DNA of 64,000 nt from positions 446 to 64,445 of IMG/VR virus record IMGVR_UViG_3300045988_173593. One strand, 5' to 3'. The notes beneath the pieces are model-generated. The model had not been told where the DNA came from. It did no database searches and was given only the letters and a program-made list of their open reading frames with translations. Position 1 is the stretch's first letter. Every line of letters begins with the position of its first letter. Positions 3,179 through 52,597 of this stretch are shown here, one piece after another. Made by a program: the position numbers and the translations under genes. Origin of the DNA: a virus.

Positions 3179-3231
3179 ATTGCAAAAGAAGCTTAAAAGA
3201 ATAACTTTGAAAAAATAATGACACCATGTTA

Positions 3232-3257
3232 CCATTTTCCCCGTACGGGGAAAATGG
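3232..3257. terminator. perfect 12-bp stem hairpin CCATTTTCCCCG-TA-CGGGGAAAATGG
   Basis: Seen in sequence, between the repressor gene and the next ORF. There is a T-run on the minus strand side. Confidence 0.45.
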
Positions 3258-3275
3258 ACAAAAAAGGGAAACGGC

Positions 3276-3551
3276 ATGGAAGATGAAATTAAATTTCTGA
3301 AAGAACGTATTGCAAGACTGGAAGAACGTATCCAGTATGCAGATGAAAAAATAAGATCCAATAAGGTATCTGTTTATTTCATTTTTTTAATCTTGATAGT
3401 GTTCTTTTTTCTCGTGATGGAATTATACTATCGGGACGGAGAAAAAGCCGAAGTCCTTAAGGTGCTTGATTCAAAAGAGACAACGGAACAACGTTATATG
3501 CTGATGGATGATAAAAGGGAGCAGATAAAAAGTGGCACTCAGAATCATTAA
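3276..3551 (+). CDS. small coiled-coil plus single-TM protein
   Basis: N-terminal heptad-like LKERIARLEERIQ, then hydrophobic VYFIFLILIVFFFLVM. Confidence 0.4.
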   Translation: MEDEIKFLKERIARLEERIQYADEKIRSNKVSVYFIFLILIVFFFLVMELYYRDGEKAEVLKVLDSKETTEQRYMLMDDKREQIKSGTQNH

Positions 3552-4635
3552 AAACAGATACTATATGTATTTCCGGGACGAGCACGGAAAGCTCCGGACA
3601 ATTGCCACTCATGCTTCACTTAATGAAAAAGAAGAGGCTCTGGCGTTTGAAAAAGAATACATGACACAACTTCGTGCCAAAAAGCGACGCCTCCGGATTT
3701 TAAAGGACTTCCCCGAATATGTCGCCATCCAGCCGGAAGCCAAACCGGATTTTGTAGCGGAAGCCCAGCAGCAGAGACGCGGAAGTATGAAATTATCTGA
3801 AATGTGGGAAACCGCTTGTAAATACAGGCAACTTTCCGACACTCATAAAAAGGCGTTGGAACGCTTCATAAAATCAACAAAATTGAAGTATGTATCTGAT
3901 GTAACTCCCCAAATTGCACTTGCCTACCTTACAAATACCTATGGAGCAGGGAATGGAAAAACATTCAATAATAATAAAACATACTTGAATACTATTTTCA
4001 AACTTTGTGTTGTGGAGTCTGGTATTTCTGGTTCTCCTTTTGATTCAGTTTTGAATATGCGCTTGAAAAATGTTGAAGTCCACAGGAAAATAACAGTTGA
4101 AGAGTTCAACCGTCTGTTTCATGCCGCTGCTGAACCATGGAAAACAGCCCTTTTAATGTCATGGCATACAGGAATGAGGGTAAGTGATTGCTTTACCTTG
4201 AAATGGGACGAAATTCAAGGTGATGCGATTATAAAAATTCCTAATAAGACATTGCGCTTCAATCGTTCTGTTTATATCCCAATACATAAAGAGTTGCAAG
4301 ATCATTTGAATACATTACCGAAGCCAAAAGACAAAAAACAAGCTGTTTTATCGCCGTTTCTTACATCAAGATTCAAACGGGTTTCCGGTGCTAGAATGCG
4401 CTATATCCAGAATCTTTTCAAAACATGTAAGGTTTTAGATACAAAAGATGGAAAAGCCAGCTTTCACAGTCTTCGTGCAACGTTTATTACACGTTGCGAA
4501 GAAGCGGGAATTCCCCGTTCGGCAATTCGTGGTATGGTAGGTCATGTATCCGATGTTACAACAGATAATTATAGTCAGGACAAGGTAACTCCACGCCTGA
4601 TATTAAACTTGCCATCTGTATGTAAAAATGTATGA
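3532..4635 (+). CDS. int: tyrosine site-specific integrase
   Basis: C-terminal catalytic region HSLRATFITRCEEAGIP...GHVSDVTTDNYSQ (R..H..R..Y pattern of the phage integrase family). Located next to the repressor and att. Confidence 0.88.
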   Translation: MALRIIKNRYYMYFRDEHGKLRTIATHASLNEKEEALAFEKEYMTQLRAKKRRLRILKDFPEYVAIQPEAKPDFVAEAQQQRRGSMKLSEMWETACKYRQLSDTHKKALERFIKSTKLKYVSDVTPQIALAYLTNTYGAGNGKTFNNNKTYLNTIFKLCVVESGISGSPFDSVLNMRLKNVEVHRKITVEEFNRLFHAAAEPWKTALLMSWHTGMRVSDCFTLKWDEIQGDAIIKIPNKTLRFNRSVYIPIHKELQDHLNTLPKPKDKKQAVLSPFLTSRFKRVSGARMRYIQNLFKTCKVLDTKDGKASFHSLRATFITRCEEAGIPRSAIRGMVGHVSDVTTDNYSQDKVTPRLILNLPSVCKNV

Positions 4636-38059: not shown

Positions 38060-39502
38060 TCACCCCACGTTTCCGGCGGCAACCACAATGATCTTTCTGT
38101 TCGAGTATTCGCCGAGCAGAAAATACCCGGTCAGGTCGTAAAGATGGTCTTCCTGCGTTGTGTCTACATCATCCGGGTCGCGCTGGCTTCTCTGAAGCAC
38201 TGGAACAGTCCTGATAAAGTTCCGGCAGTGATCGAAAACAAACAGCCCCGGGTCGGCATCGCGTTCAATTGCCCCCGTCAGCCTGTCTCGAAGAAAAGTA
38301 AGCATCTGGTGCCGTGTTCCAGGAGCCTTGCTGCACGGTTTGAAGAATACTCCGTAATCCTCAAATTGTTTGGCAACAGTAGACTGCGAAGCGGACGATG
38401 AAGCAAAAATTGCGGAGTCGGCAATGCTTTCATGCACATGATACCCCAGCATTTTCTCTGTTTCCCTGATCCGTTCCGCACGGTCACGGATCGTTGATTT
38501 GTCGCCTTCGTTTGGTTTTCCTGTGGATCCGTAAAGTTCCTGAATCAGGAACGCATCGCCGGGAATCGTAGGACGCCGTTCTCCGCTTGGCAGAACATAA
38601 TCGGTTCCGTCCGACACGGCGAACCATCCAACCGCCCACGGGTGCGAATTTCCGTCATCGTAGCTTTTGACGATATACCACGAATCAGGAATACGGAATC
38701 TTGGCATGACATGAATTGATTCACGCCATAAGTCATCCACCGCGCCGCCGGCGGTGATGTTCCAGTCGCCTTCCAGCATCGCCTTGACAAGCCAGTCCTG
38801 TCCCAGACCTTTCAGACGGTTCGCATATTCTTCCTGGTTCAGCGAAGGATTGTCGGAAAGTTTCGCAGGAATGAACTGCCGGAGCATCCCGCCCTCTGCC
38901 GCCGGAGTCCGCCAGATTTCCCCGGCTGGCTGAGGATCAATGAACATCGCCTTGACCCAGTTATGCCCCGGACCACCCGGATTGGAACCGCAAAGGATTT
39001 TCGGAAATGTCAGATTCGGGATCATTTTCACAACGGCGGGATCGGCTTTTATCTGCTTCGGAACACGGCATCTGCCTCGCAGAAACCGATATTGATATTC
39101 CGTGAAATGTGTCAGTTCGTCAATCATCAGAACCCCGATTTCCGCGCCCTGATACTTCATCACGTCTTTTTCATATTGGCAGTGGCAGAGATGAATCACG
39201 CTTCCTGATTCCATGAATCGAATCTTAGGCGGTGCTGTCGTAATCTTGACTTTTCCGGATTCAACCTCGCTTGCAAGAAGACCGGGAAAACCGGTTTCCC
39301 CCTCGAAGTGGTTTTTCAGAAGATCGTCGCTCAACCTTCGGAACAAATAAACCTGCAACTCCCTCACGTTCATGCAGAGAAAGATTGCAAGGGCGCGGAT
39401 CAGAAAACTTTTCCCCCCGCCGGCTGCCCCTCCGAATAAAATCTCGGTCGCGTCGCTTTTCAGAACTTCGCCCTGCCGTTTGTGCAGAATCAGATTACTC
39501 AT
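38060..39502 (-). CDS. terL: terminase large subunit
   Basis: Walker A GGAAGGGKS near the N-terminus; C-terminal nuclease-like acidic motifs; 480 aa. Confidence 0.82.
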   Translation of the reverse strand: MSNLILHKRQGEVLKSDATEILFGGAAGGGKSFLIRALAIFLCMNVRELQVYLFRRLSDDLLKNHFEGETGFPGLLASEVESGKVKITTAPPKIRFMESGSVIHLCHCQYEKDVMKYQGAEIGVLMIDELTHFTEYQYRFLRGRCRVPKQIKADPAVVKMIPNLTFPKILCGSNPGGPGHNWVKAMFIDPQPAGEIWRTPAAEGGMLRQFIPAKLSDNPSLNQEEYANRLKGLGQDWLVKAMLEGDWNITAGGAVDDLWRESIHVMPRFRIPDSWYIVKSYDDGNSHPWAVGWFAVSDGTDYVLPSGERRPTIPGDAFLIQELYGSTGKPNEGDKSTIRDRAERIRETEKMLGYHVHESIADSAIFASSSASQSTVAKQFEDYGVFFKPCSKAPGTRHQMLTFLRDRLTGAIERDADPGLFVFDHCRNFIRTVPVLQRSQRDPDDVDTTQEDHLYDLTGYFLLGEYSNRKIIVVAAGNVG

Positions 39503-40403
39503 TTACTGCATCCTTTCGTTCAAACAGCGGAAGACTTTCGGCGAAAATCTCGTCCGAAAACCGCTTATGCAAAAACAAATGCTCCGTGGTCTTCCGGTTG
39601 TTATGTGTGCCACAGGTTGAAACCTTGTCCCTGCTCCAAACCGAGAAAAAATCATCCGGCATCGCGTATTCCGAAACCCATACAGGGTAATCACGTGTCC
39701 GGAGCCAATCATAAAAACGGGAATAATCAAAGCAACCATCCTTATATTCCTTCGTCCCTCTGTATGGGATATCGCAGTAGACTACCGAATCATGCGGAAT
39801 TTCAACAGACTGATAATCTAAGGAAAATATCTGTAAATTGCTTTCCATACTTTCCAGACTTTGCAGTCTTTTCAGATTTTCCAGACTTTGCAGACTTTGT
39901 AGGCGTCGCAGACTGTATTTCAGCTTGTCACGTAATTTCCACGTATCAGCATTCTTTGCAATGTTTTGTCTTGAAGCATCATCCGTATCAATCCCGAAGT
40001 CGCGTTTCAGCAACGAAAAATCGCCTAAGACACGTGCGTAATGCAGAGCCTTTTTCCACGGTTCGATTTTGCGCCCGTAGATATAAGAATGTCCATCGTT
40101 CCCGAAGCTCCAGCAAGTCCTGACATAAGTGTCCGTGTCTTTCAGACGCTCGAAGTTCTCGCGGCTGATCCAGCGTTTCTCGTTTCGGTATTTTCCGTTG
40201 ATCGCATCCACAAACAGGCGCGGCATGTCTGGCGCAATGTCGTTGACGATGAACTTTTTATATTTCCCGCTGAGCATCGCCGCGTGAGTTACGGCGCAAC
40301 CGCCGCAGAACAGATCGACAAAGTATTCTGCCGATGGCAGTTGTTCCACAATATCACGGGCGATTCTGTTTTTGCTTCCCATATAGGGCATTCCATAATT
40401 CAT
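39495..40403 (-). CDS. Dam-like (D12 class) N6-adenine DNA methyltransferase
   Basis: PYMGSK N-terminal motif; FCGGCAV (motif I, FxGxG); VVYCDIPY (motif IV, DPPY-type). Confidence 0.75.
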   Translation of the reverse strand: MNYGMPYMGSKNRIARDIVEQLPSAEYFVDLFCGGCAVTHAAMLSGKYKKFIVNDIAPDMPRLFVDAINGKYRNEKRWISRENFERLKDTDTYVRTCWSFGNDGHSYIYGRKIEPWKKALHYARVLGDFSLLKRDFGIDTDDASRQNIAKNADTWKLRDKLKYSLRRLQSLQSLENLKRLQSLESMESNLQIFSLDYQSVEIPHDSVVYCDIPYRGTKEYKDGCFDYSRFYDWLRTRDYPVWVSEYAMPDDFFSVWSRDKVSTCGTHNNRKTTEHLFLHKRFSDEIFAESLPLFERKDAVNE

Positions 40404-40420
40404 AGAACATGCCCCCAGCG

Positions 40421-40954
40421 TCAGTTGTTTTCAATCGTAAGCGTGAAGCGGTCGGTTGTCTGAACTGAACCCGAAAGCTCTGTCTCCATCTTTTCGCTGT
40501 ATCCGCGCCGTTTCCCTACGGTTTTCAGCAGAAAGAAGATTGCATCCTTGTCTCCTTCCCTGACAAGTTTCACCAGCTGGTTTTCGGCAAGGTCGATAAT
40601 CGTTTCCTTCTGGCTTTGAAAGTAATCATTTGCTTCCGGAACCAAAGTCAGATATTTTGCCGCTGTCATCCGGTCGATTCCGGCAAGCTGGGCAAGGGCT
40701 GTCATGATTCCGCCGCTTCTCTTGGCGCATTCGATGAATTTCTCTTTGCTGACTTTCATCCGAAAAGCACGCCCGCGCGATTGCTGATTTCCCGCAAGAA
40801 ACCGACCATGTTCATCTCTCCACGGTTTCTGCTCTTCCGATCCTGTCGTTTCGGATGTTGTCTTTTCTTTCTGAGAGTTCTTGACGGAAGAAGCCATCTT
40901 CTTCCCGGACGCAGTGGCATTTCTTTTCTGTTTGCTCATAACACATAATCCCAT
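40421..40954 (-). CDS. terS: terminase small subunit candidate
   Basis: Position upstream of terL; internal HTH-like IMTALAQLAGIDRMTAAKYL. Confidence 0.5.
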   Translation of the reverse strand: MGLCVMSKQKRNATASGKKMASSVKNSQKEKTTSETTGSEEQKPWRDEHGRFLAGNQQSRGRAFRMKVSKEKFIECAKRSGGIMTALAQLAGIDRMTAAKYLTLVPEANDYFQSQKETIIDLAENQLVKLVREGDKDAIFFLLKTVGKRRGYSEKMETELSGSVQTTDRFTLTIENN

Positions 40955-43455: not shown

Positions 43456-44040
43456 ATGATTACAATCAAATTTATGGATGATAGAAAGTCGATTGAGATA
43501 GACGCTGAAACAATTGTCGAAGCATTAGAAACGGCGCTCTCTGATGGTGTTGACTTACGCCATGTAGACTTGCGCGGGGCTTGCTTGACCGGTGTTGACT
43601 TGCGCGATGCCTGCTTGCGCGGGGCTTGCTTGACCGATGCTGACGTTAGCTATGCTGAGTTGATCGGGGCTGATTTGACCGGTGCTGAGTTGACCCGTGC
43701 TGATTTGACCGGTACTGATTTGACCGATGCCTGCTTGACCGATGCTTGCTTGCGCCATGCTTGCTTGCGCCGTGCTTGCTTGACCCGTACTGATTTGACC
43801 GGTACTGATTTGACCGATGCCTGCTTGACCGATGCTTGCTTGATCAATGCTGATCTGCTCGGGGCCTGCTTGACCGATGCTGACGTTAGCTATGCTGATT
43901 TGACCGGTGCTGATTTAACCCGTGCTGATTTGACCGGTGCTGATTTGACCCATGCTGATTTGAGCGGTGCCCGCTTGACCGATGCTTGCTTGATCGATGC
44001 TTGCTTGATCGATGCCTGCTTGACCGGTGCAATTCGATAA
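43456..44040 (+). CDS. pentapeptide-repeat protein
   Basis: Roughly 30 consecutive A(D/N)LxG-type pentapeptides (ADLTGADLTRADLTGADLTHADLSGARL). RBS AAGAGGTGA. Confidence 0.8.
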   Translation: MITIKFMDDRKSIEIDAETIVEALETALSDGVDLRHVDLRGACLTGVDLRDACLRGACLTDADVSYAELIGADLTGAELTRADLTGTDLTDACLTDACLRHACLRRACLTRTDLTGTDLTDACLTDACLINADLLGACLTDADVSYADLTGADLTRADLTGADLTHADLSGARLTDACLIDACLIDACLTGAIR

Positions 44041-44297: not shown

Positions 44298-44657
44298 ATG
44301 CGTTGTCTTATCATTCGCGCCCCGTTTGCAGGGGAAATAGTCGACGGAGAAAAGCCCGTGGAATTTCGGAAGCGTCATACCCGAATACGTGAGAGGATCG
44401 GCATTATCGAGGCAGGAACAGGAACGGTAATCGGCGAGTGTGATCTTGTAGACTCAATAGACAGAAGCGATTATGATGATGATTACTGCGTCGGCTGGGT
44501 CTGCTTGCGCCCCTTGAGATATGCAGAGCCCAAGCCCTACATACACCCAAACGGCGCTCAGCAGTGGGTTAACGTGCCGATAGAGCCGGAACAGGCTTAC
44601 AGCTCTAAAATAACAGCAAAACAATACGATAACGCATATAATTATACGGATTGTTAA
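44298..44657 (+). CDS. ASCH (PUA-like) domain protein
   Basis: MRCLIIRAPFAGEIVDGEKPVEFRKR matches the ASCH N-terminal pattern. Confidence 0.5.
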   Translation: MRCLIIRAPFAGEIVDGEKPVEFRKRHTRIRERIGIIEAGTGTVIGECDLVDSIDRSDYDDDYCVGWVCLRPLRYAEPKPYIHPNGAQQWVNVPIEPEQAYSSKITAKQYDNAYNYTDC

Positions 44658-44701
44658 GGGTAGTAAGGCCGCGAATCTGCAATAAGTAGCGTCTTTGGTT
44701 G

Positions 44702-45553
44702 TTACTGATTTTTAGTCGGTCTTCCAAAGGCGTCTTTTTTTGTTGTTTCAAGTTTTAAGCCTAATTTTTCCGCCAGTTCCTCCCCTGATATGTATTTCTC
44801 TTTTGCGTTTAATTGAAATCCGGTGATAAATTTATTCATGTTTTCAGGCGTATCAAAAACGATAACCCGGTAATAATCTTCGTTTTCAAGATTTTTATAT
44901 TTCGCCATTGCGTCTTTACGCTTCTTCTTCATCTCGTTGATTTTTTCAACATCAGACTGAACTTCTTCAGGCAGATCATAACCGTTGATTTTTGAAAGCT
45001 CAGTTTCGTTGAACATGATTTCAATATCCGCCTGGGTGAATCCGACGTCTGCAAACTCGACCCCGTCATCAATAAATAAATCCGCAAGTTTACTGTAATC
45101 GAAAACTCCTTGCATATTTGGATTATTCAGGCGGATATTCAATTTGCGTTCCATTTTGTCATCAACGTCAATAGCCAGAACATCGAGTTCATAATCTTTT
45201 GTCTTCATGAGTTCATCAAGTACGGATAATCTTTGATGACCCCCTACAACGTTTCCAGTGCGCTGATTCCACACAATCGCATTCGCCAGCCCTTCCTTTA
45301 CGCTTTTTTTTAGCTTTTTCCGGCTTTCATCATCTATTTCTCGCGGGTTATATTCCGCCTCATGCAGTTGTGACCTATGGACACGTTGCGGTGTAAATAT
45401 TTGATATTTGCATAGTTTATTAACTTGTTCAGCTGTTTCGTTAAACTCATTTTTTTTATTGTTGGACATAAGAACCTCTCCTGTATTGAAAAACATCACG
45501 CGCGTGAATAACATTTGCCAACGGGAATTTATTTTCGACCTTTGCCCAGTCAT
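44702..45553 (-). CDS. ParB/Sulfiredoxin-like nuclease-domain protein (IbrB-like)
   Basis: VVGGHQRLSVLDEL is the ParB N-terminal GxxR box. Confidence 0.65.
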   Translation of the reverse strand: MTGQRSKINSRWQMLFTRVMFFNTGEVLMSNNKKNEFNETAEQVNKLCKYQIFTPQRVHRSQLHEAEYNPREIDDESRKKLKKSVKEGLANAIVWNQRTGNVVGGHQRLSVLDELMKTKDYELDVLAIDVDDKMERKLNIRLNNPNMQGVFDYSKLADLFIDDGVEFADVGFTQADIEIMFNETELSKINGYDLPEEVQSDVEKINEMKKKRKDAMAKYKNLENEDYYRVIVFDTPENMNKFITGFQLNAKEKYISGEELAEKLGLKLETTKKDAFGRPTKNQ

Positions 45554-46145
45554 CCGGGTAATAGGATTGAAGCATTATTTGAGCATCAGGAAAAAAAGGA
45601 CAGCTTAAGCTTCGTTCGGAAAACTGATATTCTGTAGGCGGCAATATCTTGTTGAGTTTCAGATATTGAAAAACTTTACTGCTGTTCCAAAACGCCAGCG
45701 GAAATAGTTTTGAATGCTTATAATCCACCCCTCCGTGCTCATTTATCATTGCTTGTCTTTCTATGCTTTCATACGCCATCATCCCGTATGCAATCCAGTT
45801 ACATTGAAAAAAATCACGGACATAATTTTCAATATCAGAAAAATATATTTTAGGCACACGGGAAAGCTCAATGCTTTTGTGCATATATTTTTGCTCTTTA
45901 TAAATATCACTCAGCTCAAAATGCGGAACATGCAGAATTTTTACCCTATAACGGTTTTCAATATACCGGAAATAATTGTCCTGAAGAGTGCAATGATCCA
46001 CATAATACATATAGAATACATATACCGTTCTGAAATACTTTTTGCACAAATCAAGAAGACAGACGCTATCTTTTCCGCCGCTGAAACCTACAATGATTTT
46101 TTGAGTTTCGCACTGTCCTTTTTTTATGACATCATACAAATCCAT
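45456..46145 (-). CDS. PP-loop ATP pyrophosphatase (PAPS reductase-like) family protein
   Basis: VGFSGGKDSVCLLDL P-loop SGGxDS. Confidence 0.7.
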   Translation of the reverse strand: MDLYDVIKKGQCETQKIIVGFSGGKDSVCLLDLCKKYFRTVYVFYMYYVDHCTLQDNYFRYIENRYRVKILHVPHFELSDIYKEQKYMHKSIELSRVPKIYFSDIENYVRDFFQCNWIAYGMMAYESIERQAMINEHGGVDYKHSKLFPLAFWNSSKVFQYLKLNKILPPTEYQFSERSLSCPFFPDAQIMLQSYYPDDWAKVENKFPLANVIHARDVFQYRRGSYVQQ

Positions 46146-46212
46146 AAGAACCTTATATATAATTCAAACTTTAATAACAAAAGAGCTTTAAAGCTCTTTT
46201 GTTAATTGATCT

Positions 46213-46329
46213 CAAAGCGTCAATGCATACATCACGCGTCCATATTCTCTCTCACGTCTTGTCTGCCACGCTTTCCGGGCAGCTCTACGCCTTGCCGCTC
46301 TTTTTGCTTTTGCTTTTTCACTCGCCATA
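46213..46329 (-). CDS. small basic peptide (not in ORF track, under 60 aa)
   Basis: RBS AGGAGATAATT then ATG; MASEKAKAKRAARRRAARKAWQTRREREYGRVMYALTL. Confidence 0.3.
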
Positions 46330-46379
46330 ATTATCTCCTGTTTTTTGCCATCATCACCATGATAACGGCTTATACTTAC

Positions 46380-46393
46380 CCAGGATTGTCAAT
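46380..46393 (-). promoter_or_regulatory. motif variant ATTGACAATCCTGG upstream of the small peptide and PP-loop/ParB operon
   Basis: 1 of 11 copies. Confidence 0.5.
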
Positions 46394-46535
46394 TTGAGAA
46401 TAGGCTGCATTCGGAAATATTCATGCAGAAACGGCGGTTTGTTCTTGTCTTTTGCTCAATGAAGGGAAAAAATATTGACGCATCGTGTATCTTTGAACGT
46501 AGAAAAAAAAATCTGAAAAAAATACAATTTTTCTT

Positions 46536-47249
46536 TCAAAAGGAATTTTCATTGTCCCATTTTTTAACCTGTTTACGCTCGTTTTTTGTCCCATTTTTGC
46601 GTTCAGGATTCAAACGCAGCTTTGCTCTTATTCTTTGCAGAATTCTTCCCGCCTTGCTTTTGGAAACCCCCATCTGTATGGCAATACTGCGGATCGTGCA
46701 GCCGTCTTCATATTTCAAACGGTAAAACTGGAATTCCTGCGGTGTCAGCTTCTTGAAACTGGAGTCTTTCAATACCCGGTTCCCGATGCCGAGTTCATTT
46801 TGAATTCCTGTATGGATTGCCTGCCGGGTAACGCCGAGATACTCCGCGACATCGGATAAACTCTTACAACCGGACAATCTCAAAGCAAGCGCACGTGCTG
46901 TCCGGGGCTTTTCCGCTCCAAGTATGAGACATGAAACCGCTAATTTAAGATTTACTCCTGAAACTTCAATTTCTTGCCCGTCTTTCTTAAAATAAAATGC
47001 TTTTTCATCTTCATCAAGGACAAGATCGTTTTCACCATAGACATTGCCAAGTTCTTCATTTAATGGAGCCGTTGATTTGGCAAAATGCTTGATTCCGCTT
47101 TTTTCTGTATGGTTGAGAATTCCATAAATTCTACATGACTCGTCAAACTCGCAATCGGGGCAACGTCTTCCTATTTTTCTTTTCCCGAAACATTCAGGAC
47201 ACCCGGAACTGATTGCTTTTGAGTCTTTTTTCTCCGTAAATTCACTCAT
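46536..47249 (-). CDS. zinc-ribbon plus sigma-70 region-4/LuxR-type HTH transcription regulator (candidate late-gene regulator)
   Basis: N-terminal CPEC...CPDC. C-terminal LTPQEFQFYRLKYEDGCTIRSIAIQMGVSKSKAGRILQRIRAKLR closely follows the sigma region 4.2 pattern. No region 2 detected. Confidence 0.6.
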   Translation of the reverse strand: MSEFTEKKDSKAISSGCPECFGKRKIGRRCPDCEFDESCRIYGILNHTEKSGIKHFAKSTAPLNEELGNVYGENDLVLDEDEKAFYFKKDGQEIEVSGVNLKLAVSCLILGAEKPRTARALALRLSGCKSLSDVAEYLGVTRQAIHTGIQNELGIGNRVLKDSSFKKLTPQEFQFYRLKYEDGCTIRSIAIQMGVSKSKAGRILQRIRAKLRLNPERKNGTKNERKQVKKWDNENSF

Positions 47250-47348
47250 AACCCCTCTCTTTCCCTTGAAGATTCAATATTTGGTGATATTTGTATCCTT
47301 GGTTTCAGAGATGATCTTCAAGTTTTGAGAGGATGAAATCATAAAAAA

Positions 47349-47380
47349 GCCGGAATTGCGGGTTCCGGCTTTTGCTTTTC
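47349..47380. terminator. hairpin GCCGGAA-ttgcggg-TTCCGGC flanked by A-run and T-run (bidirectional)
   Basis: Seen in sequence, between the ssb gene and the regulator gene. Confidence 0.55.
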
Positions 47381-47433
47381 ACCGCCTCATACAGAAGCGG
47401 ATTTTGTCAACTTGTAAATTTTGGCAACTTATA

Positions 47434-47826
47434 TTATGGACAATCCTCCCGGCTGTATCTGTGATCTCCTTCGTATCTTGCTCCGGCTGTCCTGTGTCCG
47501 TTTCCTTCAGGCTGATCCAGGAATTTTATATTCTGAACATAAATCCGTGTTTTGCTCCGAGTTTCACCGGTTTTTCTGTCCTGCCATTGCTCATTCTTAA
47601 GGAAACCCTCAACCAGAACGGAGGAACCTTTTCCGGTGAATCGCGGGATAACCTCCGCCGTTTTACCGAAACATACGCATTCCCCGAAGTAAGTATCGGG
47701 CTTCTCGCGTGTCCCCTGATTGACCGCGATCCCGAAGGAACATATTGCCGTCTGATTGTTTGTATACCGGATTTCCGGATTCCTGGTCAGATTCCCCATC
47801 AGAAAAACCTTGTTATAGCTTGCCAT
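47434..47826 (-). CDS. ssb: single-stranded DNA-binding protein
   Basis: KVFLMGNLTRNPEIRYTNNQTAICSFGIAVN...YFGECVCFGKTAEV shows an OB-fold SSB pattern. Confidence 0.85.
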   Translation of the reverse strand: MASYNKVFLMGNLTRNPEIRYTNNQTAICSFGIAVNQGTREKPDTYFGECVCFGKTAEVIPRFTGKGSSVLVEGFLKNEQWQDRKTGETRSKTRIYVQNIKFLDQPEGNGHRTAGARYEGDHRYSREDCP

Positions 47827-48238
47827 TGGATTGCGTTCCTTTCAATTTCAGATAAAGCTCCAATGCACTTCCGGCATCAGTCGGATAACTGTAACATTTG
47901 CCCTTAGATATAATATGCATATCAGTAAAATCAGTATTTGGAAGTTCGCAAATCGCATCAAAAATCTCTTCTAAAGTCGGTGCCGGAAAACAATACTCAG
48001 GATGGTTTCTGGAAAAAACAACTATCCGAGCCGTATCCATAACCGCTTCTTTAGGTAAATGTTCAAGGAGTTCAGATAACCTAAATCTGAACTCCTTGAA
48101 CTCTTCTTTAATATATTCTATTTCATCCCACCGAAACACTGTATTCTGAAATGCATCAGCTGGTATTTTTCTGCATGCTTCAAAATCAGGAACAATATCC
48201 TCAATTTCTCGTAATTTTTCCATTATTTCACCCTCCAT
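47813..48238 (-). CDS. hypothetical protein
   Basis: 141 aa. Confidence 0.4.
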   Translation of the reverse strand: MEGEIMEKLREIEDIVPDFEACRKIPADAFQNTVFRWDEIEYIKEEFKEFRFRLSELLEHLPKEAVMDTARIVVFSRNHPEYCFPAPTLEEIFDAICELPNTDFTDMHIISKGKCYSYPTDAGSALELYLKLKGTQSNGKL

Positions 48239-48305
48239 AGAATGATTCCGAGAATCAGGGCAATGCCGAGCCCCGGAATCAGATTTGAAATCAGTTCAGA
48301 CAAGT

Positions 48306-48695
48306 TCATTTCTTCTCTCCGACCAGTTTTTCTTTCAACGCCTCTTTTGCCAGCATGTAAATCTCTCCGGCTTCTTTCGGTAACTCCTCAGACACAAACC
48401 TTGAATTGGAAATTGCCGGGAGAACCTTTATCAGCGCCATTTCCTTTGTTGTCGGAACGAATACCGAAACAAGGAAAAATACCACGAGTAAAGCGATACT
48501 TATAAAACAAGCTCGCAATTCAAGTTTCATTGCCGGGTGAAATTCTTCTTCACCTTCAGAGGCCATAAAAGTCGAAAATAATATGATAAGGCTTAATACC
48601 ACCAGAATACTGGTAATAATGCATAAACCGATTAGAAAGTCATGTATTCCATCCATCCTTGTAATCCAGTAAACTGTGCTTTCCGTAATTTCCAT
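48306..48695 (-). CDS. membrane protein (3 TM)
   Basis: Hydrophobic helices. Confidence 0.4.
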   Translation of the reverse strand: MEITESTVYWITRMDGIHDFLIGLCIITSILVVLSLIILFSTFMASEGEEEFHPAMKLELRACFISIALLVVFFLVSVFVPTTKEMALIKVLPAISNSRFVSEELPKEAGEIYMLAKEALKEKLVGEKK

Positions 48696-48722
48696 GATTA
48701 TTTTCCTTTCCCTTTGAGTTGT

Positions 48723-49001
48723 TTACCATTCATTTCCGTCTTGTTCCTTCTGTTTCAGCAAGTGCTCAATCGTTCGAAGCGACGTCACGGCGACATGCGC
48801 CGCTTCCTCCAGAATATGTTCCCGAGTCGCCCCCTCGATACAATTCATAAAATCGTTGACCGCCTGACAGAGTTCTCCGTATTCCTCTCCGATCACCATA
48901 CATTGCATACTGTAGGCTGCCGGAAACCCCGGATGCTTTTTCTTTGCCTTTTCAAGTTCGATCAAAACCAGACCGAATACATCTTTCATTTTTTCGCCCA
49001 T
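48723..49001 (-). CDS. MazG-like nucleoside triphosphate pyrophosphohydrolase
   Basis: VIGEEYGELCQAVNDF (EExxE) core. Confidence 0.55.
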   Translation of the reverse strand: MGEKMKDVFGLVLIELEKAKKKHPGFPAAYSMQCMVIGEEYGELCQAVNDFMNCIEGATREHILEEAAHVAVTSLRTIEHLLKQKEQDGNEW

Positions 49002-49502
49002 ATTTCACTCATCTCCTTCATTTTTTCTTTCAAACTTGCATCCCGGATTGAAAGAGTGCATCTTAGTGCACCCGCCGAACATCTCGTCAAAATAACGGCA
49101 CTCCTCACAATTGGTCAGAGGCTCCGGCATTCCATGATGCTTCAGAATCACATCCATAGCATGCCCGACCTCCTTTCTTACAAGCCCGGCCTCATCAAAA
49201 GTCCGGCAATCCTTTCCGGAATGCCAGTCACGATAGCGCCTCAGAATTTTAACGGCGTTTTTCAGTTTCATTTTTATTTGGTTCCTTCCAAAGTCTTTTT
49301 TACAATGTATTTTGTCATGGACACGAATTCAGGGTCTTTGTCATGCGTCTCCAGAATATCCAGCAAACCGGAACGCAATCTTGCATTTTCCTGTTTCAGT
49401 TCGTCAATTCGTTTCAGGAGCCTTGTATTCTCCTCCGCCTGTTTCATCAAAAGAATTTCAGTCTCAATATCGCAAGACATTTTTTATCCTTTTCACTTCA
49501 TA

Positions 49503-50132
49503 TTATCCGTAATATGCTGCTCTCCACCGTGCCTTGATTTCCTCGGCGTTGAGCGGATGTTCTGCATTGTATTTTTTCGCCTGTTCAAGCAATGCCGTTT
49601 CCGACTCAAGCGAGTTGTTCAGCTTCGGCATTTTCTTGCCCTGACATTGGCAGCAGATACCAGCCAGCGAGCGTGTCATTGTTCCGCAAATTCTGCACGG
49701 CTCATATTTCCTGGTGCGGATATACGGGTATCTGTCGTTCTGACGGATGTTGTAGCACTTCCGGCAGATTGCGCCGCGTCCGCCGCCCATCGCCGGGGCT
49801 CCGCAATATTTGCAGGTCTTTGCCTCGCGTTCCGTAGGCTCATGCCTCTTATGGTATTGCTGTTCGCGACGGTGCTTGTTATAACACTCCCGGCAAATCA
49901 GCCCGTTGTTGCACTCCTTAGGCAATGCCGGGGCGCCGCAGATGCGGCAGACGCGCGGGAGATCGCGAGATCGTGAGAGTGCAAAGTTGCGAGGTGAGGC
50001 AGACGCATCAGGCGGGACGGGTGATTTTTCATTTTTCATATTTTGCCTCCTCCGCATTCCACGGAACCTGCCGGATTTGGAGTTCCGGCGGGAACTTTGC
50101 GATGTCTTTAAGGCTGGCGACGATTTTTTCAA
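49503..50132 (-). CDS. triple zinc-ribbon (CxxC-N-CxxC x3) basic protein
   Basis: CRICGAP...CRECYNKH; CKYCGAP...CRKCYNI; CRICGTM...CCQCQ. Confidence 0.5.
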   Translation of the reverse strand: MKKSSPALKTSQSSRRNSKSGRFRGMRRRQNMKNEKSPVPPDASASPRNFALSRSRDLPRVCRICGAPALPKECNNGLICRECYNKHRREQQYHKRHEPTEREAKTCKYCGAPAMGGGRGAICRKCYNIRQNDRYPYIRTRKYEPCRICGTMTRSLAGICCQCQGKKMPKLNNSLESETALLEQAKKYNAEHPLNAEEIKARWRAAYYG

Positions 50133-50140
50133 GGCCTTGT

Positions 50141-51499
50141 TTACTCATTATTTTCCTCCTGATCGTATTCATCGGTCAAGCCTGTATTTTCAAGTTCCAT
50201 CATATCACCTATCTCATCATAAGCACATGGGCGCACACGGCGGAATTCGTCCATGTCGCCACAGGAAAAAAGTAGACGGGCAGTCTTACCCTGTGGTGTC
50301 ATAGCCTCATAAATACCTTGTTTTTTGTATTTTCGGAAAAGAGCGTTCAATGCTTTCCTGTATCCGAACTTTTCCATACAGAGATCATAGGCTTTCGGGT
50401 GTGTCTGCCGCAATACAGACAGATGATTGTTCCGATAGAGCAGATCAGTTCCGCAGAACATACAACCATTACGCTCAATACGCCTGGTATTTCCGTCTTT
50501 GTTTTCATATTCAATATCATAGAGGGGCGAATATTCCAGCCGATAATAGCTGATGTAATTCCAAATGTCTTTTTCCGTCCAAAGCGCAATTGGCGAAACA
50601 TGGTAAAACGCCCCGTCTTTAATATGATCTCTGCGACTTTCGAAAATATGCCCTCTTGTTGATACGTTGATCATGCGCGTATGGCTTTCTTCCGCCATCA
50701 GCCCTTTGATAATGACATCCACATCAAGTTGCTTTTGCAGCTCTTCCGAAGGCTTCTTTTTCAGGAGTGTGCAACAATGCTGGGAAAATTTGCATTCACG
50801 CAGAATATCGTAGTATTCTTTCAATTTGCCGTTTTCACTGGCTGTCTTTGAGTATTTCAAAAAACACTCAATATTAATTCTGTGAGCATCCAGCTTGCTT
50901 GCCGATTTTCCGAGCAGAGGCAGACCATACTGTTCCATGCAGTATAGGAAATTCATAGGATGTCCGGAGAAAAAGCAGTTCTCTTTCGTGAGTTCATACC
51001 CGCGTTTTTTTGCCGCGGCAATCAGAGCTTTCTGTCCGGCGAGTTTGCCGTCGTCCTTCAAAATCTCTGCGAGGCACCCTTCAGATTCAAGCTGTGCCAC
51101 AAGCTGACGTGCGAACTCATAACGCAGCTCATCTTCCGGCAATGGACGCGGTTTCGTCTCATAAAAACGGTCTCCGTAATGTTCTTTCCCATACTTGCGG
51201 GCAAACGCCAGACTTTCCGGAAATTCGACACCCGTATTGCCGAAAATGCAAAGAATGCGCTTGTGAAGTTCCGGACAAAAACGTTCGATTAAATCAGCAA
51301 CGACTTCCGAATCTTTCCCTCCTGAAAATGCAAGTGCGATATTGTGGCGGCTCAACACATCCGACTGCCTCAAAACCTCAACAGAAAGTTTAATTTTTTC
51401 ATTTAACGGTTTTTTTTGAAACTCGTTGATTTCCTGAAATGTATATTTATCTTTTAACATTCCCCCGCTCCTTTCAATTTTTGAATCAACTCGTCCCAT
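50141..51499 (-). CDS. PP-loop ATPase, PAPS-reductase/IbrA-like with long C-terminal extension
   Basis: ALAFSGGKDSEVVADL; 452 aa. Confidence 0.7.
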   Translation of the reverse strand: MGRVDSKIERSGGMLKDKYTFQEINEFQKKPLNEKIKLSVEVLRQSDVLSRHNIALAFSGGKDSEVVADLIERFCPELHKRILCIFGNTGVEFPESLAFARKYGKEHYGDRFYETKPRPLPEDELRYEFARQLVAQLESEGCLAEILKDDGKLAGQKALIAAAKKRGYELTKENCFFSGHPMNFLYCMEQYGLPLLGKSASKLDAHRINIECFLKYSKTASENGKLKEYYDILRECKFSQHCCTLLKKKPSEELQKQLDVDVIIKGLMAEESHTRMINVSTRGHIFESRRDHIKDGAFYHVSPIALWTEKDIWNYISYYRLEYSPLYDIEYENKDGNTRRIERNGCMFCGTDLLYRNNHLSVLRQTHPKAYDLCMEKFGYRKALNALFRKYKKQGIYEAMTPQGKTARLLFSCGDMDEFRRVRPCAYDEIGDMMELENTGLTDEYDQEENNE

Positions 51500-51750
51500 G
51501 AATCAAGCGCCATTGAGATTGTCGCGGGTTCTATCGACCCCCATACATCCTCAACGCAATAACCCGTGCATCCCTCGATATTTTCATAGTCGTGAAAAGG
51601 ATCGTAACCGCATTTTCGGCAACTGACCCATATTTCGCAACCGTCTTCGCAAACCTGTTGAGAGTGAGCGTAAAACTCCTCTTTGTTTCCACACTTCGGA
51701 CAAGGCAAATAAGGATTGTCGGGAGCGATTTTAAATTTTCTGCTGGCCAT
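51454..51750 (-). CDS. zinc-ribbon protein
   Basis: CPKCGN...CRKCGY. Confidence 0.45.
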   Translation of the reverse strand: MASRKFKIAPDNPYLPCPKCGNKEEFYAHSQQVCEDGCEIWVSCRKCGYDPFHDYENIEGCTGYCVEDVWGSIEPATISMALDSWDELIQKLKGAGEC

Positions 51751-52597
51751 GGTTGACTCCTTTCAGGGCTTTTTCAGCATACCGTTTGATTGTCATAAAT
51801 TTCGGGCATGACGGATCGGGAATCCTTTTCCAGTATTCGTTATTCGCGAGTTCTGCAATCTCTTTCAGAGCCTCCCGCAGCCGCTTGTTTTCGGCTTCAA
51901 GAGCCTCAATACGGACGGCTTGGCGCTCCCGTCTCGCTTTCATGGTTGCAAGACGCTCTTTATATCTCCGGATATTCGCACTGTTATTGCTCAGCGCCCA
52001 TGACTCAAATCCGGCAGACTGCCAACTGTATTCAGGCGCGAAAATTTTTCGCGCTGATTCTTCCGATGCTCCGAGCGCAACAATGGCAGAAATTTTCTCC
52101 GCTTCATTGAGTTTTCTGTTGCGGCAAATCTTGTTCACGGCAAGCATGAATTCGTGTTCTTTTTCAAGGCGGGCAATCTTCTGTTCAACCTTTTCGATTG
52201 CATCCGGATCATCATCAAAAATCGTATTTTCGAGGTAATCCGAAAGACCCGCCGCCTTTTCCAGATGATGCTTTGCCAAATTGCTTTCCTCAACCGCCCG
52301 TGTTCCGGCTGCCTGTGCGCGGGCAACAGCCGCACGGTGCCGTTTTTCGCTGTGATGCCCGACAAGTATCGGCTGCCCGAATGAGATACCCTCAACGGCT
52401 TTTTCTGATTTTTCCCATTCCTTACGGCTGCGCTGTTCTGCTTTCTCTGCCCATTCCCTACGCTTTGCCAGCTTGTTTTCCAATCGTTCGCGTCTGTTCA
52501 TGTTCTTTGTCCTTTCACGCATGTATTGCTTCATTTTCAAACAGAGTCGGAGCATCCTGTTCCGCTTCGACCTGTTCCAGATATTTAACTCCGTCAC
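51731..52597 (-). CDS. coiled-coil hypothetical protein
   Basis: 288 aa with charged heptads. 5' end overlaps the upstream gene, so the true start is probably internal. Confidence 0.4.
   Translation of the reverse strand: MTELNIWNRSKRNRMLRLCLKMKQYMRERTKNMNRRERLENKLAKRREWAEKAEQRSRKEWEKSEKAVEGISFGQPILVGHHSEKRHRAAVARAQAAGTRAVEESNLAKHHLEKAAGLSDYLENTIFDDDPDAIEKVEQKIARLEKEHEFMLAVNKICRNRKLNEAEKISAIVALGASEESARKIFAPEYSWQSAGFESWALSNNSANIRRYKERLATMKARRERQAVRIEALEAENKRLREALKEIAELANNEYWKRIPDPSCPKFMTIKRYAEKALKGVNHGQQKI

Follow-up and report, generated by a model that had tools for sequence, protein, structure and literature searches.

Does a dense run of nucleic-acid-related genes in a temperate gut phage encode a single DNA modification pathway, or have genes with separate histories come to lie side by side? 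The run occupies positions 44298–51750 of the window, the 64,000 nucleotide stretch analysed here (positions 446 to 64,445 of IMG/VR record IMGVR_UViG_3300045988_173593). A first-pass annotation had treated its ASCH, ParB-like, MazG-like, zinc-ribbon and PP-loop genes as one functional cluster, in which two PP-loop enzymes perform steps of a multi-step pathway. Every ORF it had called was found at the same position, and searches with the profiles it had proposed gave a mixed result. Both PP-loop proteins carry SGGKDS and match Pfam PAPS_reduct (E=5e-12 for the 229-aa protein and E=1.5e-20 for the 452-aa protein), while the ASCH match was sub-threshold, the ParB-like protein had no direct Pfam match, and MazG and the IbrA-type DUF3440 domain were absent in the Pfam search of the region's proteins. 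Three parts are joined in the region, namely an early 'nin-like' accessory tail (51750–47434), a regulator gene, and a conserved three-gene module (46145–44298).

A DNA hypermodification pathway drawing on both PP-loop enzymes together with the ParB, ASCH, MazG and zinc-ribbon proteins would fit the compactness of the region, as the genes are found within 7.5 kb and, the ASCH-like gene apart, on the same strand, and several of the products have nucleic-acid-related folds. However, these genes are not co-inherited. Relatives of the 452-aa gene were found in 38 IMG/VR viral loci, and when 32 window proteins were used to query these loci with tblastn, no 229-aa, ParB, ASCH, 'MazG', zinc-ribbon, DUF3560 or sigma-like gene was returned. 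The neighbours of the 452-aa gene differ locus by locus. The siblings L039 and L043 have kept the 229-aa/ParB/ASCH set (the triad, or Module B), and C5 methylases occupy the slot of the 452-aa gene (Module A), while L041 has the 452-aa gene and neither zinc-ribbon gene. As the 452-aa gene occurs alone in 38 loci and the triad occurs without it in L039 and L043, we conclude that the two modules are independent. A strong terminator also splits the region into separate transcription units, and profile searches did not support the identity of MazG. This gene distribution largely refutes a single pathway, which we consider very improbable; the comparative data contradict both the one functional cluster and the joint role of two PP-loop enzymes, one of which travels alone. 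The approximately 7 kb stretch is a mosaic rather than a single pathway.

The early part is closed by the SSB gene of the early/replication operon (47434..47826, minus strand; Pfam SSB 7.5e-27), which is followed by a strong intrinsic-terminator-like hairpin (47345..47373, minus strand) with an 11-bp stem and then a T run. This hairpin marks the boundary between the early operon and the unit formed by the regulator, PP-loop and ParB-like genes. The adjoining regulator, recognised as sigma-like in the first pass, is a 237-aa sigma-70 region-4/HTH protein (46536..47249, minus strand; Pfam Sigma70_r4_2 3e-10) that precedes the PP-loop and ParB-like genes and is a candidate late-gene regulator. 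SSB, regulator, PP-loop and ParB-like genes are in the same order in L039–L044 and L051. Between the regulator and 229-aa genes there is a 38-aa, very basic ORF (46212..46328, minus strand) that has no family match and was called as a gene in L040. A 30-bp perfect palindrome (46175..46204) just 5' of the 229-aa gene is kept only in the close siblings L039–L042 and is not general to the module; it may serve this phage lineage as a terminator or operator.

Upstream of SSB, the minus strand carries five short, variable ORFs (47813..49480; 141, 129, 92, 88 and 68 aa), of which the 129-aa one is a membrane protein and the 92-aa one is 'MazG'; none had a significant family match. Their presence differs among siblings L039–L042, and all five are missing where the 452-aa gene occurs in the 38 loci. 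The ORF called MazG (48723–49001) had no Pfam match even at E<=5, no NCBIfam match and no meaningful PDB sequence match; its sole PHROG match was to a family of unknown function (1.8e-4), and the MazG assignment is not confirmed. The two zinc-ribbon proteins were recovered at the level of motifs, with no family at threshold. One, of 178–209 aa (49503..50132, minus strand), has three CxxC...CxxC zinc-ribbon-like units, and the other, of 98 aa (51454..51750, minus strand), has a CPKC...CRKC motif and weak matches only, to TFS (2e-3) and Lar_restr_allev (0.024). Both are variable accessory genes, which L041 and the 38 viral loci all lack. The zinc-ribbon genes, 'MazG' and the small ORFs are variable early-accessory filler, tied to neither PP-loop gene.

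The 452-aa ORF (50141–51499, minus strand) is measured from an upstream ATG; translation probably starts at 51460, which gives a 439-aa stand-alone PP-loop enzyme (50141..51460) in which the PAPS_reduct domain is split in two. The protein has a ~120-aa insertion plus a C-terminal extension. FSGGKDS, CC(229/230)...LKKxP, GCxxC(333/336) and C412 are invariant, the PP-loop and the four cysteines across 37 sequences. Relatives were also found in gut metagenomes, where they form 427 clusters. In the predicted structure (pLDDT 86.6), the core is nearest to APS/PAPS reductases, with a TM-score of ~0.6 when scaled to the target and 0.3 when scaled to the query.

That resemblance, the PAPS_reduct fold itself and the common annotation of such genes in the phage genome literature would all suit auxiliary metabolic genes, i.e. 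CysH-like sulfonucleotide reductases serving to raise sulfur assimilation by the host. However, both proteins retain an SGGKDS loop of the ATP type. CysH does not have this loop, and shows SSSFGI at the position where the 452-aa protein has SGGKDS. The CC pair of the 452-aa protein lies directly before LKKxP, which aligns with KLNKVEP of CysH, and profile matches to CysH were marginal (E=0.13). The 229-aa family lacks any conserved cysteine, whether among 11 or among 136 members, making a thiosulfonate intermediate impossible, and its gene is an obligate partner of ParB and ASCH. No sulfur-assimilation genes are nearby. Neither PP-loop protein looks like a sulfate-assimilation CysH, and we regard that role as extremely improbable.

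The combination of an ATP-type PP-loop with CC...CxxC is instead seen in adenylation-dependent, sulfur-inserting enzymes, namely DndC/SspD/BrxP and TtuA/NcsA; NcsA, a 4Fe-4S thiolase, has the ATP-type loop, as does the 452-aa protein. The cysteines would be of the type that holds a 4Fe-4S cluster. PADLOC matches were partial and weak, to BrxP (9e-13), DndC (6e-5) and SspD (3e-4). Known phosphorothioate (PT) synthesis requires a second protein, a P-loop NTPase (DndD, SspC or BrxC; PMC12914056). No partner NTPase/ATPase was found among the neighbours of the 452-aa gene in the viral loci, which counts against the sulfur-modification reading. In Vibrio, a phage PAPS-domain gene gives escape from Dnd immunity (bioRxiv 10.1101/2021.05.05.442762), and Aca-regulated anti-defence operons contain PAPS-reductase genes (PMC13551039).

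The lack of a partner NTPase, the precedent of a phage PAPS domain that defeats Dnd and the location in an early operon beside methylases are also what might be expected of a decoy or inhibitor. Such a protein would write no DNA mark, and would blind PT-dependent restriction by binding host PT components (DndD/E, SspB/C, BrxC, IscS) or by draining sulfur/ATP intermediates. However, the catalytic PP-loop is invariant and so are the four cysteines, which suggests an active enzyme, and this explanation presupposes PT systems in the hosts of these phages. We consider it distinctly unlikely. The 452-aa gene is a horizontally mobile, stand-alone early accessory gene, and its product most likely serves counter-defence, through either sulfur modification of nucleic acid or interference with host phosphorothioate-based immunity.

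The triad consists of genes for a cysteine-less, 229-aa PP-loop ATP-pyrophosphatase-type protein (45456..46145, minus strand) with the PAPS_reduct fold, a 255-aa partner of the ParB/Srx superfamily (44702..45469, minus strand) and a 119-aa ASCH-like protein (44298..44657, plus strand), the last convergent with the ParB-like gene. The pairing of PP-loop and ParB-like genes, already remarked on in the first-pass annotation, proved to be real and non-random. Here they overlap by 14 nt. When ParB was taken as the starting point, a PP-loop ORF was directly upstream, mostly overlapping, in all 72 viral loci whose upstream sequence was long enough; with the PP-loop gene as the starting point, ParB was directly downstream in 57/58 genome loci. 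An ASCH-like ORF was found within 4 kb in 52 of these 58 loci, and ASCH-like ORFs flank the pair in 51/79 viral loci. The 229-aa family, in which SGGKDS (here FSGGKDS) is invariant, has 877 representatives at E<=1e-10. Triad hosts belong to Bacteroidota, Bacillota, Spirochaetota, Lentisphaerota, Desulfobacterota, Planctomycetota and Myxococcota, with annotated examples in RAP44, LR1, BS-TP2, an Opitutaceae prophage and a Spirochaete MAG. The three genes are co-inherited across phyla. In one locus (L050) an intein is positioned exactly behind SGGKDS of the PP-loop gene, and a single HNH–PP-loop fusion was seen (P0354).

The ParB-like protein, previously recognised by its GGHQR box, matched phrog_9353 (4e-59), and also the ParB-like phrog_620 (3e-23) and phrog_498 (ParB-methylase; 5e-22). 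PF02195 was recognised in its more distant homologues, in which a fusion to PF01555 is frequent, and the nearest relatives of the ParB domain are those fused to N6/N4 methylases. GGHQR (VGGHQR in this phage), YNPR and E107 are invariant. The closest solved folds to its AlphaFold model (pLDDT 85.5) are the CTP-binding clamps ParB-CDP (6sdk), Myxococcus and Caulobacter ParB, Noc and KorB. The ASCH assignment was less secure, as the Pfam match (E=1.2e-3) reached 19.9 bits, below the gathering score of 21.2, and the L043 homologue was also 'ASCH (weak)'. It is strengthened by the many loci, unrelated to one another, in which ASCH-like genes again adjoin the PP-loop/ParB pair. When aligned, ASCH-like proteins have an N-terminal GxKxxExR motif in common.

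In most phages the triad is directly upstream of TerS-TerL-portal, and the next large gene is usually a terminase large subunit. Among 64 loci the first large downstream ORF was Terminase_6N in 33, Terminase_3 in 30 and GpA in 4, with family counts that overlap. Here the triad is parted from the packaging genes by an inserted 3.7-kb cassette of accessory genes in convergent orientation; the packaging genes are a 177-aa TerS candidate, a Dam-like methylase and TerL (38060..40954, minus strand; Pfam MethyltransfD12 1.6e-15, Terminase_6N 6e-4). The TerS candidate has no family match and was assigned by position only. The triad might therefore be a packaging accessory, in which the ParB-like protein, acting as a clamp or nuclease, would join the PP-loop ATPase in helping terminase to recognise, cut or process pac/cos or genome ends. 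The almost invariable site just ahead of TerS-TerL, whichever of the three terminase families is present, is as expected for such a role, and so is the HNH fusion. HNH nucleases in such a position are terminase helpers, as Kala et al. are said to have found in 2014. The intein suggests that the gene matters for phage fitness and, with the strict site, favours a core packaging or late function over optional anti-restriction. However, most tailed phages package DNA without such genes, no PP-loop enzyme has a known packaging role, and the unrelated terminase types beside the pair argue against a specific protein–protein partnership, as does the 3.7 kb between triad and TerS here against a packaging role. 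We judge it unlikely.

Alternatively, the pair, together with ASCH, could be an IbrAB-like transcriptional co-activator, whose ParB-like subunit loads near the late promoter so that late or prophage genes are turned on. The architecture, in which a PAPS-like gene runs into a ParB-like gene that overlaps it, is like that of IbrA-IbrB and E. coli YbdN-YbdM, and the pair heads the late/packaging operon and adjoins the sigma-like regulator. KorB, a ParB-family clamp and structural neighbour, regulates transcription. To our knowledge, IbrAB is the only overlapping PAPS-like/ParB-like pair studied experimentally, and it reportedly activates prophage expression rather than modifying DNA, its targets being prophage eib genes in work by Sandt et al. 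in 2002. However, dedicated late regulators are already encoded (sigma-r4 here and Q in Psychrobacter phage Y8A), the DUF3440 of IbrA/YbdN is absent, and similarity to YbdN and YbdM is only marginal. A purely regulatory role would also leave the strictly conserved ATP-pyrophosphatase site, with its intein, and the ASCH partner unexplained. A co-activator is rather unlikely.

Some ParB-family proteins are partners of DNA-modifying enzymes, DndB with DndC and DpdB with DpdA (PMC10853773, PMC12839542). By analogy with these pairs and with ParB-methylase fusions, DNA modification or counter-defence is the most defensible reading of the triad, and the triad probably marks phage DNA. Counting against this, ASCH domains are more commonly linked to RNA, and no conserved ParB loading site was found. 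As the 229-aa subunit has no conserved cysteine, fused amidotransferase or identifiable nucleophile donor, no chemistry can be assigned. In the mechanism we infer as most likely, the ParB-like subunit would attach to phage DNA, acting as a clamp or DNA-binding protein that depends on NTP, and the translationally coupled PP-loop subunit would spend ATP to adenylate a nucleic-acid target group, ready for substitution. Binding or processing of the altered base would fall to the ASCH (PUA-like) subunit, and progeny DNA would be marked late, ahead of packaging.

The best overall explanation, to which we give about an even chance, combines a separate 439-aa Module A with the triad as Module B, each acting as proposed above. 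We read the two PP-loop genes of this phage as representing two independent nucleic-acid modification or counter-defence modules.

The window is essentially the complete genome of a temperate siphophage from a gut-type community. It encodes an S24 repressor (LexA/CI-like) and a tyrosine integrase at 2162-4635, and its structural and packaging genes include those for a tape-measure protein, an SU10-type capsid protein, a portal protein and TerL. An early operon on the minus strand runs from approximately 62 kb down to SSB at 47434 and includes genes for RecT, a DUF2800 PD-(D/E)XK nuclease, DnaB, RusA, an 833 aa SNF2-like helicase/N6_N4 methylase fusion (52515-55016, minus strand) and DUF3560. 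When the region was used to query 50,697 deposited phage genomes with megablast, no DNA-level relative was returned. The same or sibling phages are present on metagenomic contigs of 56–64 kb.

The first-pass annotation had proposed a single cluster of PP-loop, ParB, ASCH, MazG and zinc-ribbon genes between 44298 and 51750. All of the ORFs it named are present where it placed them, and we consider its observation partly confirmed and its interpretation partly supported. Both PP-loop proteins match PAPS_reduct (Pfam PF01507), the 229 aa protein (45456-46145, minus strand) at 5e-12 and the 452 aa protein (50141-51499, minus strand) at 1.5e-20, the latter match being split in two by an insertion. 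The starts that are probably correct come from gene calls on an identical contig and make the larger PP-loop protein 439 aa (50141-51460) and the ParB-like protein 255 aa (44702-45469, minus strand); the gene for the latter overlaps the 229 aa gene by 14 nt. SSB and the sigma-70 region-4 domain were both confirmed by Pfam. The ParB-like protein has no direct Pfam match and is recognised through phrog_9353 (4e-59), ParB-like PHROGs and the ParB N-domain of methylase fusions. The ASCH-like protein (44298-44657, plus strand) falls short of the gathering score for Pfam PF04266 (19.9 versus 21.2 bits), and its tentative assignment is strengthened by a motif shared in the alignment and by recurrent ASCH-like partners in other genomes. 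The MazG call was not borne out, as the protein has no Pfam match (E≤5) and no NCBIfam match, finds only the unknown-function family phrog_31484, and its phmmer matches in the PDB are designed repeat proteins. Nor does the 229 aa protein carry the DUF3440 domain of IbrA, since Pfam gives PAPS_reduct only. CxxC...CxxC motifs are visible in the putative triple and single zinc ribbons, with no family above threshold; the 98 aa zinc-ribbon protein (51454-51750, minus strand) has weak, sub-threshold matches to Lar restriction-alleviation proteins (E=0.024) and TFS/TFIIS zinc ribbons. In profile libraries, no significant family match was found for the 98 aa and triple zinc-ribbon genes or for the ORFs of 68, 88, 92, 129 and 141 aa. 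The zinc-ribbon genes and the ORFs of 68–141 aa vary among sibling phages, and are typical small accessory ORFs between replication genes and a late regulator. The genes of the window belong to kinds that are already known, if not yet characterised.

The two PP-loop genes had been read as parts of one multi-step pathway. Relatives of the 452 aa protein with 31–77% identity were found at 38 loci in a scan of IMG/VR. When 32 window proteins were compared with these loci using tblastn, no 229 aa, ParB-like, ASCH-like, 'MazG', zinc-ribbon, DUF3560 or sigma-like gene was detected, and only generic phage genes are shared (SSB in 15, the SNF2-methylase fusion in five, RusA in three and RecT in two). 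Clustering of the ten nearest ORFs at each locus, along with prophage contexts, revealed no conserved partner, whether an ATPase, a desulfurase, a zinc ribbon or a small ORF. The 452 aa gene is an early-operon gene that precedes those for recombination and replication and in some cases has C5 methylases next to it. Sibling phages, including one with only 51% identity, retain a block that comprises SSB, the sigma-like regulator, a small ORF, the 229 aa PP-loop gene, the ParB-like gene and the convergent ASCH-like gene. Two siblings (L039 and L043) lack the 452 aa gene and, at the equivalent place in their early region, encode C5 DNA methylases, and another (L041) has it and is missing both zinc-ribbon genes. 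In the window, a strong terminator-like hairpin after SSB (47345-47373) places the PP-loop genes in different predicted transcription units. As the two genes are inherited separately and belong to separate predicted transcription units, a shared multi-step pathway is unsupported, and we conclude that they are independent, which is a new finding.

A second new finding is that the genes for the 229 aa PP-loop, ParB-like and ASCH-like proteins constitute a near-obligate triad with a fixed place before the terminase genes. No description of this triad was found in the openly searchable literature, that is, outside subscription papers. Among annotated phages searched with tblastn, relatives of the 229 aa and ParB-like genes adjoin in phages of Riemerella, Lactobacillus and Bacteroides and in uncultured faecal phages, and the pair is immediately upstream of TerS-TerL-portal in Riemerella phage RAP44, Lactobacillus phage LR1 and Bacteroides phage BS-TP2. 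Two further cases share this layout: a prophage of Opitutaceae, whose GpA terminase is of the lambda type, and a Spirochaete MAG. From the ParB side, a profile scan of IMG/VR returned 249 contigs, of which 80 were kept, and at every one of the 72 loci with at least 800 nt of upstream sequence a 229 aa-type ORF immediately preceded the ParB-like gene on its strand, in most cases with an overlap (72/72). From the PP-loop side, a profile scan of GTDB species genomes yielded 58 usable loci; a ParB-like ORF was directly downstream of the PP-loop gene in 57, and an ASCH-like ORF was within 4 kb of it in 52. ASCH-profile partners were present at 51/79 viral loci, with ASCH-like positional homologues scoring 17–18 bits against Pfam ASCH (gathering score 21.2). 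The ASCH-like gene is found either just upstream on the same strand, as is typical of Bacteroidota, or convergent and just after the ParB-like gene, as in the window. The first downstream ORF of at least 380 aa at the viral loci matched Terminase_6N in 33, Terminase_3 in 30 and GpA in four of 64 cases (these counts overlap), and four other first large downstream ORFs were portal proteins. Hosts of the triad span at least seven phyla.

At E≤1e-3, an exhaustive HMMER search returned 1,404 representatives of the 229 aa family, of which 877 remained at the stricter E≤1e-10; almost all are stand-alone proteins of 210–290 aa. These relatives came via profile-based scans; a direct pattern search for close relatives found none in viral contigs or genome contigs. 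Neither ASCH-PP-loop nor PP-loop-ParB fusions were present among 398 collected proteins. The sole HNH-PP-loop fusion among the 398, family member P0354, has an N-terminal HNH nuclease domain on the PP-loop.

Other features were observed in the packaging region and beside it. A Dam-like (MethyltransfD12) methylase is encoded between the TerS candidate and TerL (39495-40403, minus strand), and its gene contains six tandem 9 nt repeats (TTTCCAGAC-like) at 39833-39912, implying a tripeptide repeat in the protein. Profile libraries gave no confirmation of the TerS identity of the 177 aa ORF. TerL in the window (38060-39502) is 480 aa with no LAGLIDADG/intein match, and in siblings it is 848–854 aa with a LAGLIDADG_3 (intein-like) match (L039:15955-18501, L042:9931-12477, L043:13574-16138); in L039 there is also an intein-type match in the gene after the portal gene. 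Between the ASCH-like gene and the packaging genes is a convergent variable cassette that includes a gene for a 194 aa pentapeptide-repeat protein (43456-44040, plus strand; Pfam 7.6e-55), the DNA of which is a 15 nt periodic repeat. The same cassette in sibling L041 includes a weak LPD29 (polyvalent-protein) domain. This cassette is a candidate anti-defence or moron island.

Papers on phages and viromes report 'PAPS reductase' among the most frequent auxiliary metabolic genes, and usually read it as CysH-like sulfur assimilation. Both window proteins have the PAPS_reduct alpha/beta fold of CysH. The degenerate SxFG P-loop of CysH is missing from both, which instead have FSGGKDS. The catalytic ECGLH-type C-terminal cysteine of CysH, which forms a thiosulfonate intermediate, has no conserved counterpart in the 229 aa family (11 diverse and 136 representative members). 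A CysH-like auxiliary metabolic gene was rejected on these active-site features. Across the same 11 and 136 members, the SGGKDS PP-loop and several substrate-side motifs are conserved, and the number of conserved cysteines is zero. CysD is the nearest match of the family profile (2.9e-5), followed by a 4Fe-4S tRNA thiolase (8.5e-3); CysH is matched only at E=0.13. Having no conserved cysteine, the 229 aa protein cannot work by CysH chemistry, nor can it transfer sulfur by way of Fe-S chemistry as DndC and TtuA do. Judged from its sequence, it is best described as a predicted ATP pyrophosphatase, an adenylating enzyme. A further new point is that its large 'PAPS reductase' family lacks residues that sulfonucleotide reduction requires.

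In a 229 aa homologue on a contig from JGI metagenome 3300063139 (L050:4062-6029), a LAGLIDADG intein is found exactly after SGGKDS, with the junctions ...YSGGKDS/VHSDS...VLVHN/SLVVADL..., and the ParB-like gene overlaps the 3′ end of the interrupted gene. Inteins occupy such sites in functionally important genes. In the window, an ORF for an extremely basic 38 aa peptide (MASEKAKAKRAARRRAARKAWQTRREREYGRVMYALTL; 46212-46328, minus strand) lies between the sigma-like gene and the 229 aa gene. N-terminal extensions rich in basic residues are seen in several distant 229 aa homologues, either as true features or as artefacts of ORF calling.

GGHQR, YNPR and E107 are invariant in the ParB-like protein, and its more distant homologues contain PF02195, often fused to PF01555. 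The AlphaFold model (pLDDT 85.5) is nearest to the CTP-dependent DNA clamps ParB, Noc and KorB, in structures with CTP or CDP bound (Foldseek: 6sdk, 7bnr, 7bm8, 7ng0, 8qa8), and aligns over about 155–160 columns, past the approximately 100-residue N-domain. The model thus points to a ParB-type N-domain that carries the nucleotide-binding GxxR motif, with a helical domain for DNA binding after it. A gene for a ParA partner is absent, and no conserved ParB loading site was found upstream of the module. A 30 bp perfect palindrome (TAACAAAAGAGCTTTAAAGCTCTTTTGTTA; 46175-46204), found nowhere else in the window, lies upstream of the 229 aa gene at a distance of 30 bp. As it is conserved only in the close siblings L039–L042, and palindromes are not enriched upstream of the module (2/69 loci versus 9/385 controls), it was rejected as a general parS-like loading site.

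ParB-like proteins accompany DNA-modifying enzymes in other settings. The ParB-superfamily protein DndB accompanies the PP-loop enzyme DndC, and DpdB accompanies DpdA (PMC10853773, PMC12839542); ParB-methylase fusions are a third such setting. DndC, SspD and BrxP share with the window proteins a PAPS_reduct-fold PP-loop ATP pyrophosphatase, to which Dnd adds DndB. However, the DndD, SspC or BrxC ATPase, DndE and the cysteine desulfurase are linked to neither window PP-loop gene, the 229 aa protein is without any cysteines, unlike DndC, and the ASCH component of the triad is foreign to Dnd, Ssp and BREX. DpdA-DpdB, responsible for 7-deazaguanine insertion into DNA, is similar in that the DNA-modifying enzyme needs a ParB-like NTPase, but DpdA is a tRNA-guanine-transglycosylase homologue rather than a PP-loop enzyme, and the system has no sequence relationship to the window genes. 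The ParB N-domain/N6-N4 methylase fusions (phrog_498; PF02195+PF01555) are most similar to the window's ParB domain and lie between replication and terminase genes; their methylase partner is fused, whereas the triad has a separate, translationally coupled PP-loop enzyme together with ASCH, and a much tighter terminase linkage. ASCH domains have a PUA-like fold that is tied to binding or hydrolysing modified nucleobases. From the ParB partners of DNA-modifying enzymes, the ASCH fold, the translational coupling and the late, pre-packaging position, we tentatively favour the view that the triad may be a module for ATP-dependent modification directed at DNA, by which progeny DNA is marked, a serious possibility if somewhat short of a probable one.

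The IbrA/IbrB pair of E. coli ECOR-9 and the YbdN/YbdM pair of K-12 raise the alternative that the triad is a transcription co-activator. Both consist of a PAPS_reduct PP-loop gene followed by an overlapping ParB-like gene, the order seen here, with an overlap of 28 nt in ybdN/ybdM versus 14 nt in the window. IbrAB is of prophage-related origin, and reportedly activates prophage genes (eib), according to what is said to be the sole functional report on it, by Sandt and colleagues in 2002. Strict terminase linkage and the intein would fit the core late function that such a co-activator would have. However, IbrA and YbdN are approximately 400 aa with a C-terminal DUF3440 that is missing from the 229 aa protein, and the sequence similarity is marginal (BLASTP 8e-5 to YbdN in the PP-loop region only, and 3e-4 to YbdM in the YNP motif region only). 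These phages also already encode dedicated late regulators, and we consider a co-activator unlikely. We know of no ASCH partner or terminase linkage for IbrAB. The chromosomal K-12 pair (L052:4748-6570), which comprises ybdN (PAPS_reduct/DUF3440) and ybdM (ParB-like), is repressed by the adjacent LysR regulator CitR/YbdO (PMC9068703), and is a tractable model for PP-loop/ParB pairs. The terminase linkage and the intein would equally suit an accessory role in packaging, but the pair is found with three unrelated terminase families, and we regard this role as distinctly improbable.

Returning to modification of progeny DNA, the triad could more specifically be an undescribed, packaging-coupled system, although we hold this elaboration to be rather doubtful. 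Acting as an NTP-dependent clamp, the ParB-like subunit would be loaded on replicated phage DNA close to where packaging starts, and would then slide along that DNA. A base or an oxygen of the backbone would be adenylated by the PP-loop subunit, priming it for replacement by a nucleophile other than sulfur, and ASCH would read the modified base or complete it. The new protective mark would then reach only DNA about to be packaged. If true, this packaging-coupled modification logic would also explain the enigmatic IbrAB and YbdNM pairs.

The family of the 452 aa protein comprises 427 clusters in gut metagenomes, with source annotations of Ruthenibacterium, Ruminococcus and Oscillospiraceae. FSGGKDS, C229-C230, C333-x-x-C336 and C412 are invariant in 37 sequences; C412 is a conserved C-terminal cysteine, in an RPCAYD context rather than an ECGLH one, and may or may not be the counterpart of the catalytic cysteine of CysH. 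The core of the structural model (pLDDT 86.6, pTM 0.83) is that of an APS/PAPS-reductase (TM-score about 0.6 when scaled to the target and about 0.3 when scaled to the query), with 4bwv, 6vpu, 2goy and 1sur as the top Foldseek matches, followed by TtuA, TilS and the PAPS domains of FAD synthases. An insertion of approximately 120 residues and a C-terminal extension are added to this core; the extension has no structural match. A BFVD fold search yielded nothing more specific than generic 'PAPS reductase' phage proteins. LKKxP, which the CC pair directly precedes, aligns in profile comparisons with KLNKVEP of CysH, the site of the cluster-binding CC in APS reductases. At the position of SGGKDS, Vibrio vulnificus CysH has SSSFGI and the 4Fe-4S thiolase NcsA has SGGKDS. 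Adenylation-dependent sulfur insertion, as by DndC/SspD/BrxP and TtuA/NcsA, is marked by an ATP-type PP-loop combined with a cysteine cluster, and we infer that the CC and CxxC cysteines of the 452 aa protein are putative Fe-S cluster ligands. DndC is an Fe-S protein (PMC12839542, PMC12914056), and DndC, SspD and BrxP resemble the 452 aa protein in having SGGKDS and a conserved cysteine set. As the PADLOC matches are only partial (BrxP 9e-13, residues 53–118; DndC 6e-5, residues 242–317; SspD 3e-4), the 452 aa protein falls outside these families. Known phosphorothioate synthesis requires a P-loop NTPase partner, DndD, SspC or BrxC (PMC12914056), and none was linked to the 452 aa gene at the 38 viral loci or in prophage contexts.

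A fusion of a PAPS domain (residues 4–175) to Dam in a Vibrio crassostreae podovirus is an anti-Dnd protein that was shown by experiment to confer escape from Dnd (bioRxiv 10.1101/2021.05.05.442762), a precedent for counter-defence by phage PAPS-domain genes. The 452 aa gene shares its methylase linkage, which is by fusion there and often by neighbourhood here; the likeness is seen at the fold level, and the 439 aa protein differs from the fusion in standing alone and in its insertion, cysteine motif and C-terminal extension. A second precedent is that phage PAPS-domain genes occur in Aca-regulated operons (PMC13551039). Stand-alone PAPS_reduct genes between replication genes and a late regulator are cited for lambda and Psychrobacter phage Y8A. 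These early 'nin'-type homologues are like the 452 aa gene in being stand-alone and in genomic position, but the approximately 120 aa insertion, CC...CxxC and the C-terminal extension set the 452 aa family apart. The presence of C5 DNA methylases in place of the 452 aa gene in siblings fits a DNA-marking or anti-restriction role. The protein may write a sulfur mark, act on RNA or interfere with host phosphorothioate machinery.

With no conserved cysteine, an ATP-type PP-loop and near-obligate ParB-like and ASCH partners at the head of the packaging operon, at least one large 'PAPS reductase' family (877 representatives, E≤1e-10) cannot, on these features, be a sulfonucleotide reductase. The triad is a concrete three-gene unit in cultured phages (Lactobacillus LR1, Riemerella RAP44 and Bacteroides BS-TP2) that could lead to new DNA modification chemistry or to a new late-gene or packaging function, and it offers a way to approach the puzzling IbrAB and YbdNM pairs of E. 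coli. The 452 aa gene adds to the stand-alone phage PP-loop proteins with Fe-S-type cysteine motifs, which may counter the phosphorothioate-based immunity that is common in gut bacteria.
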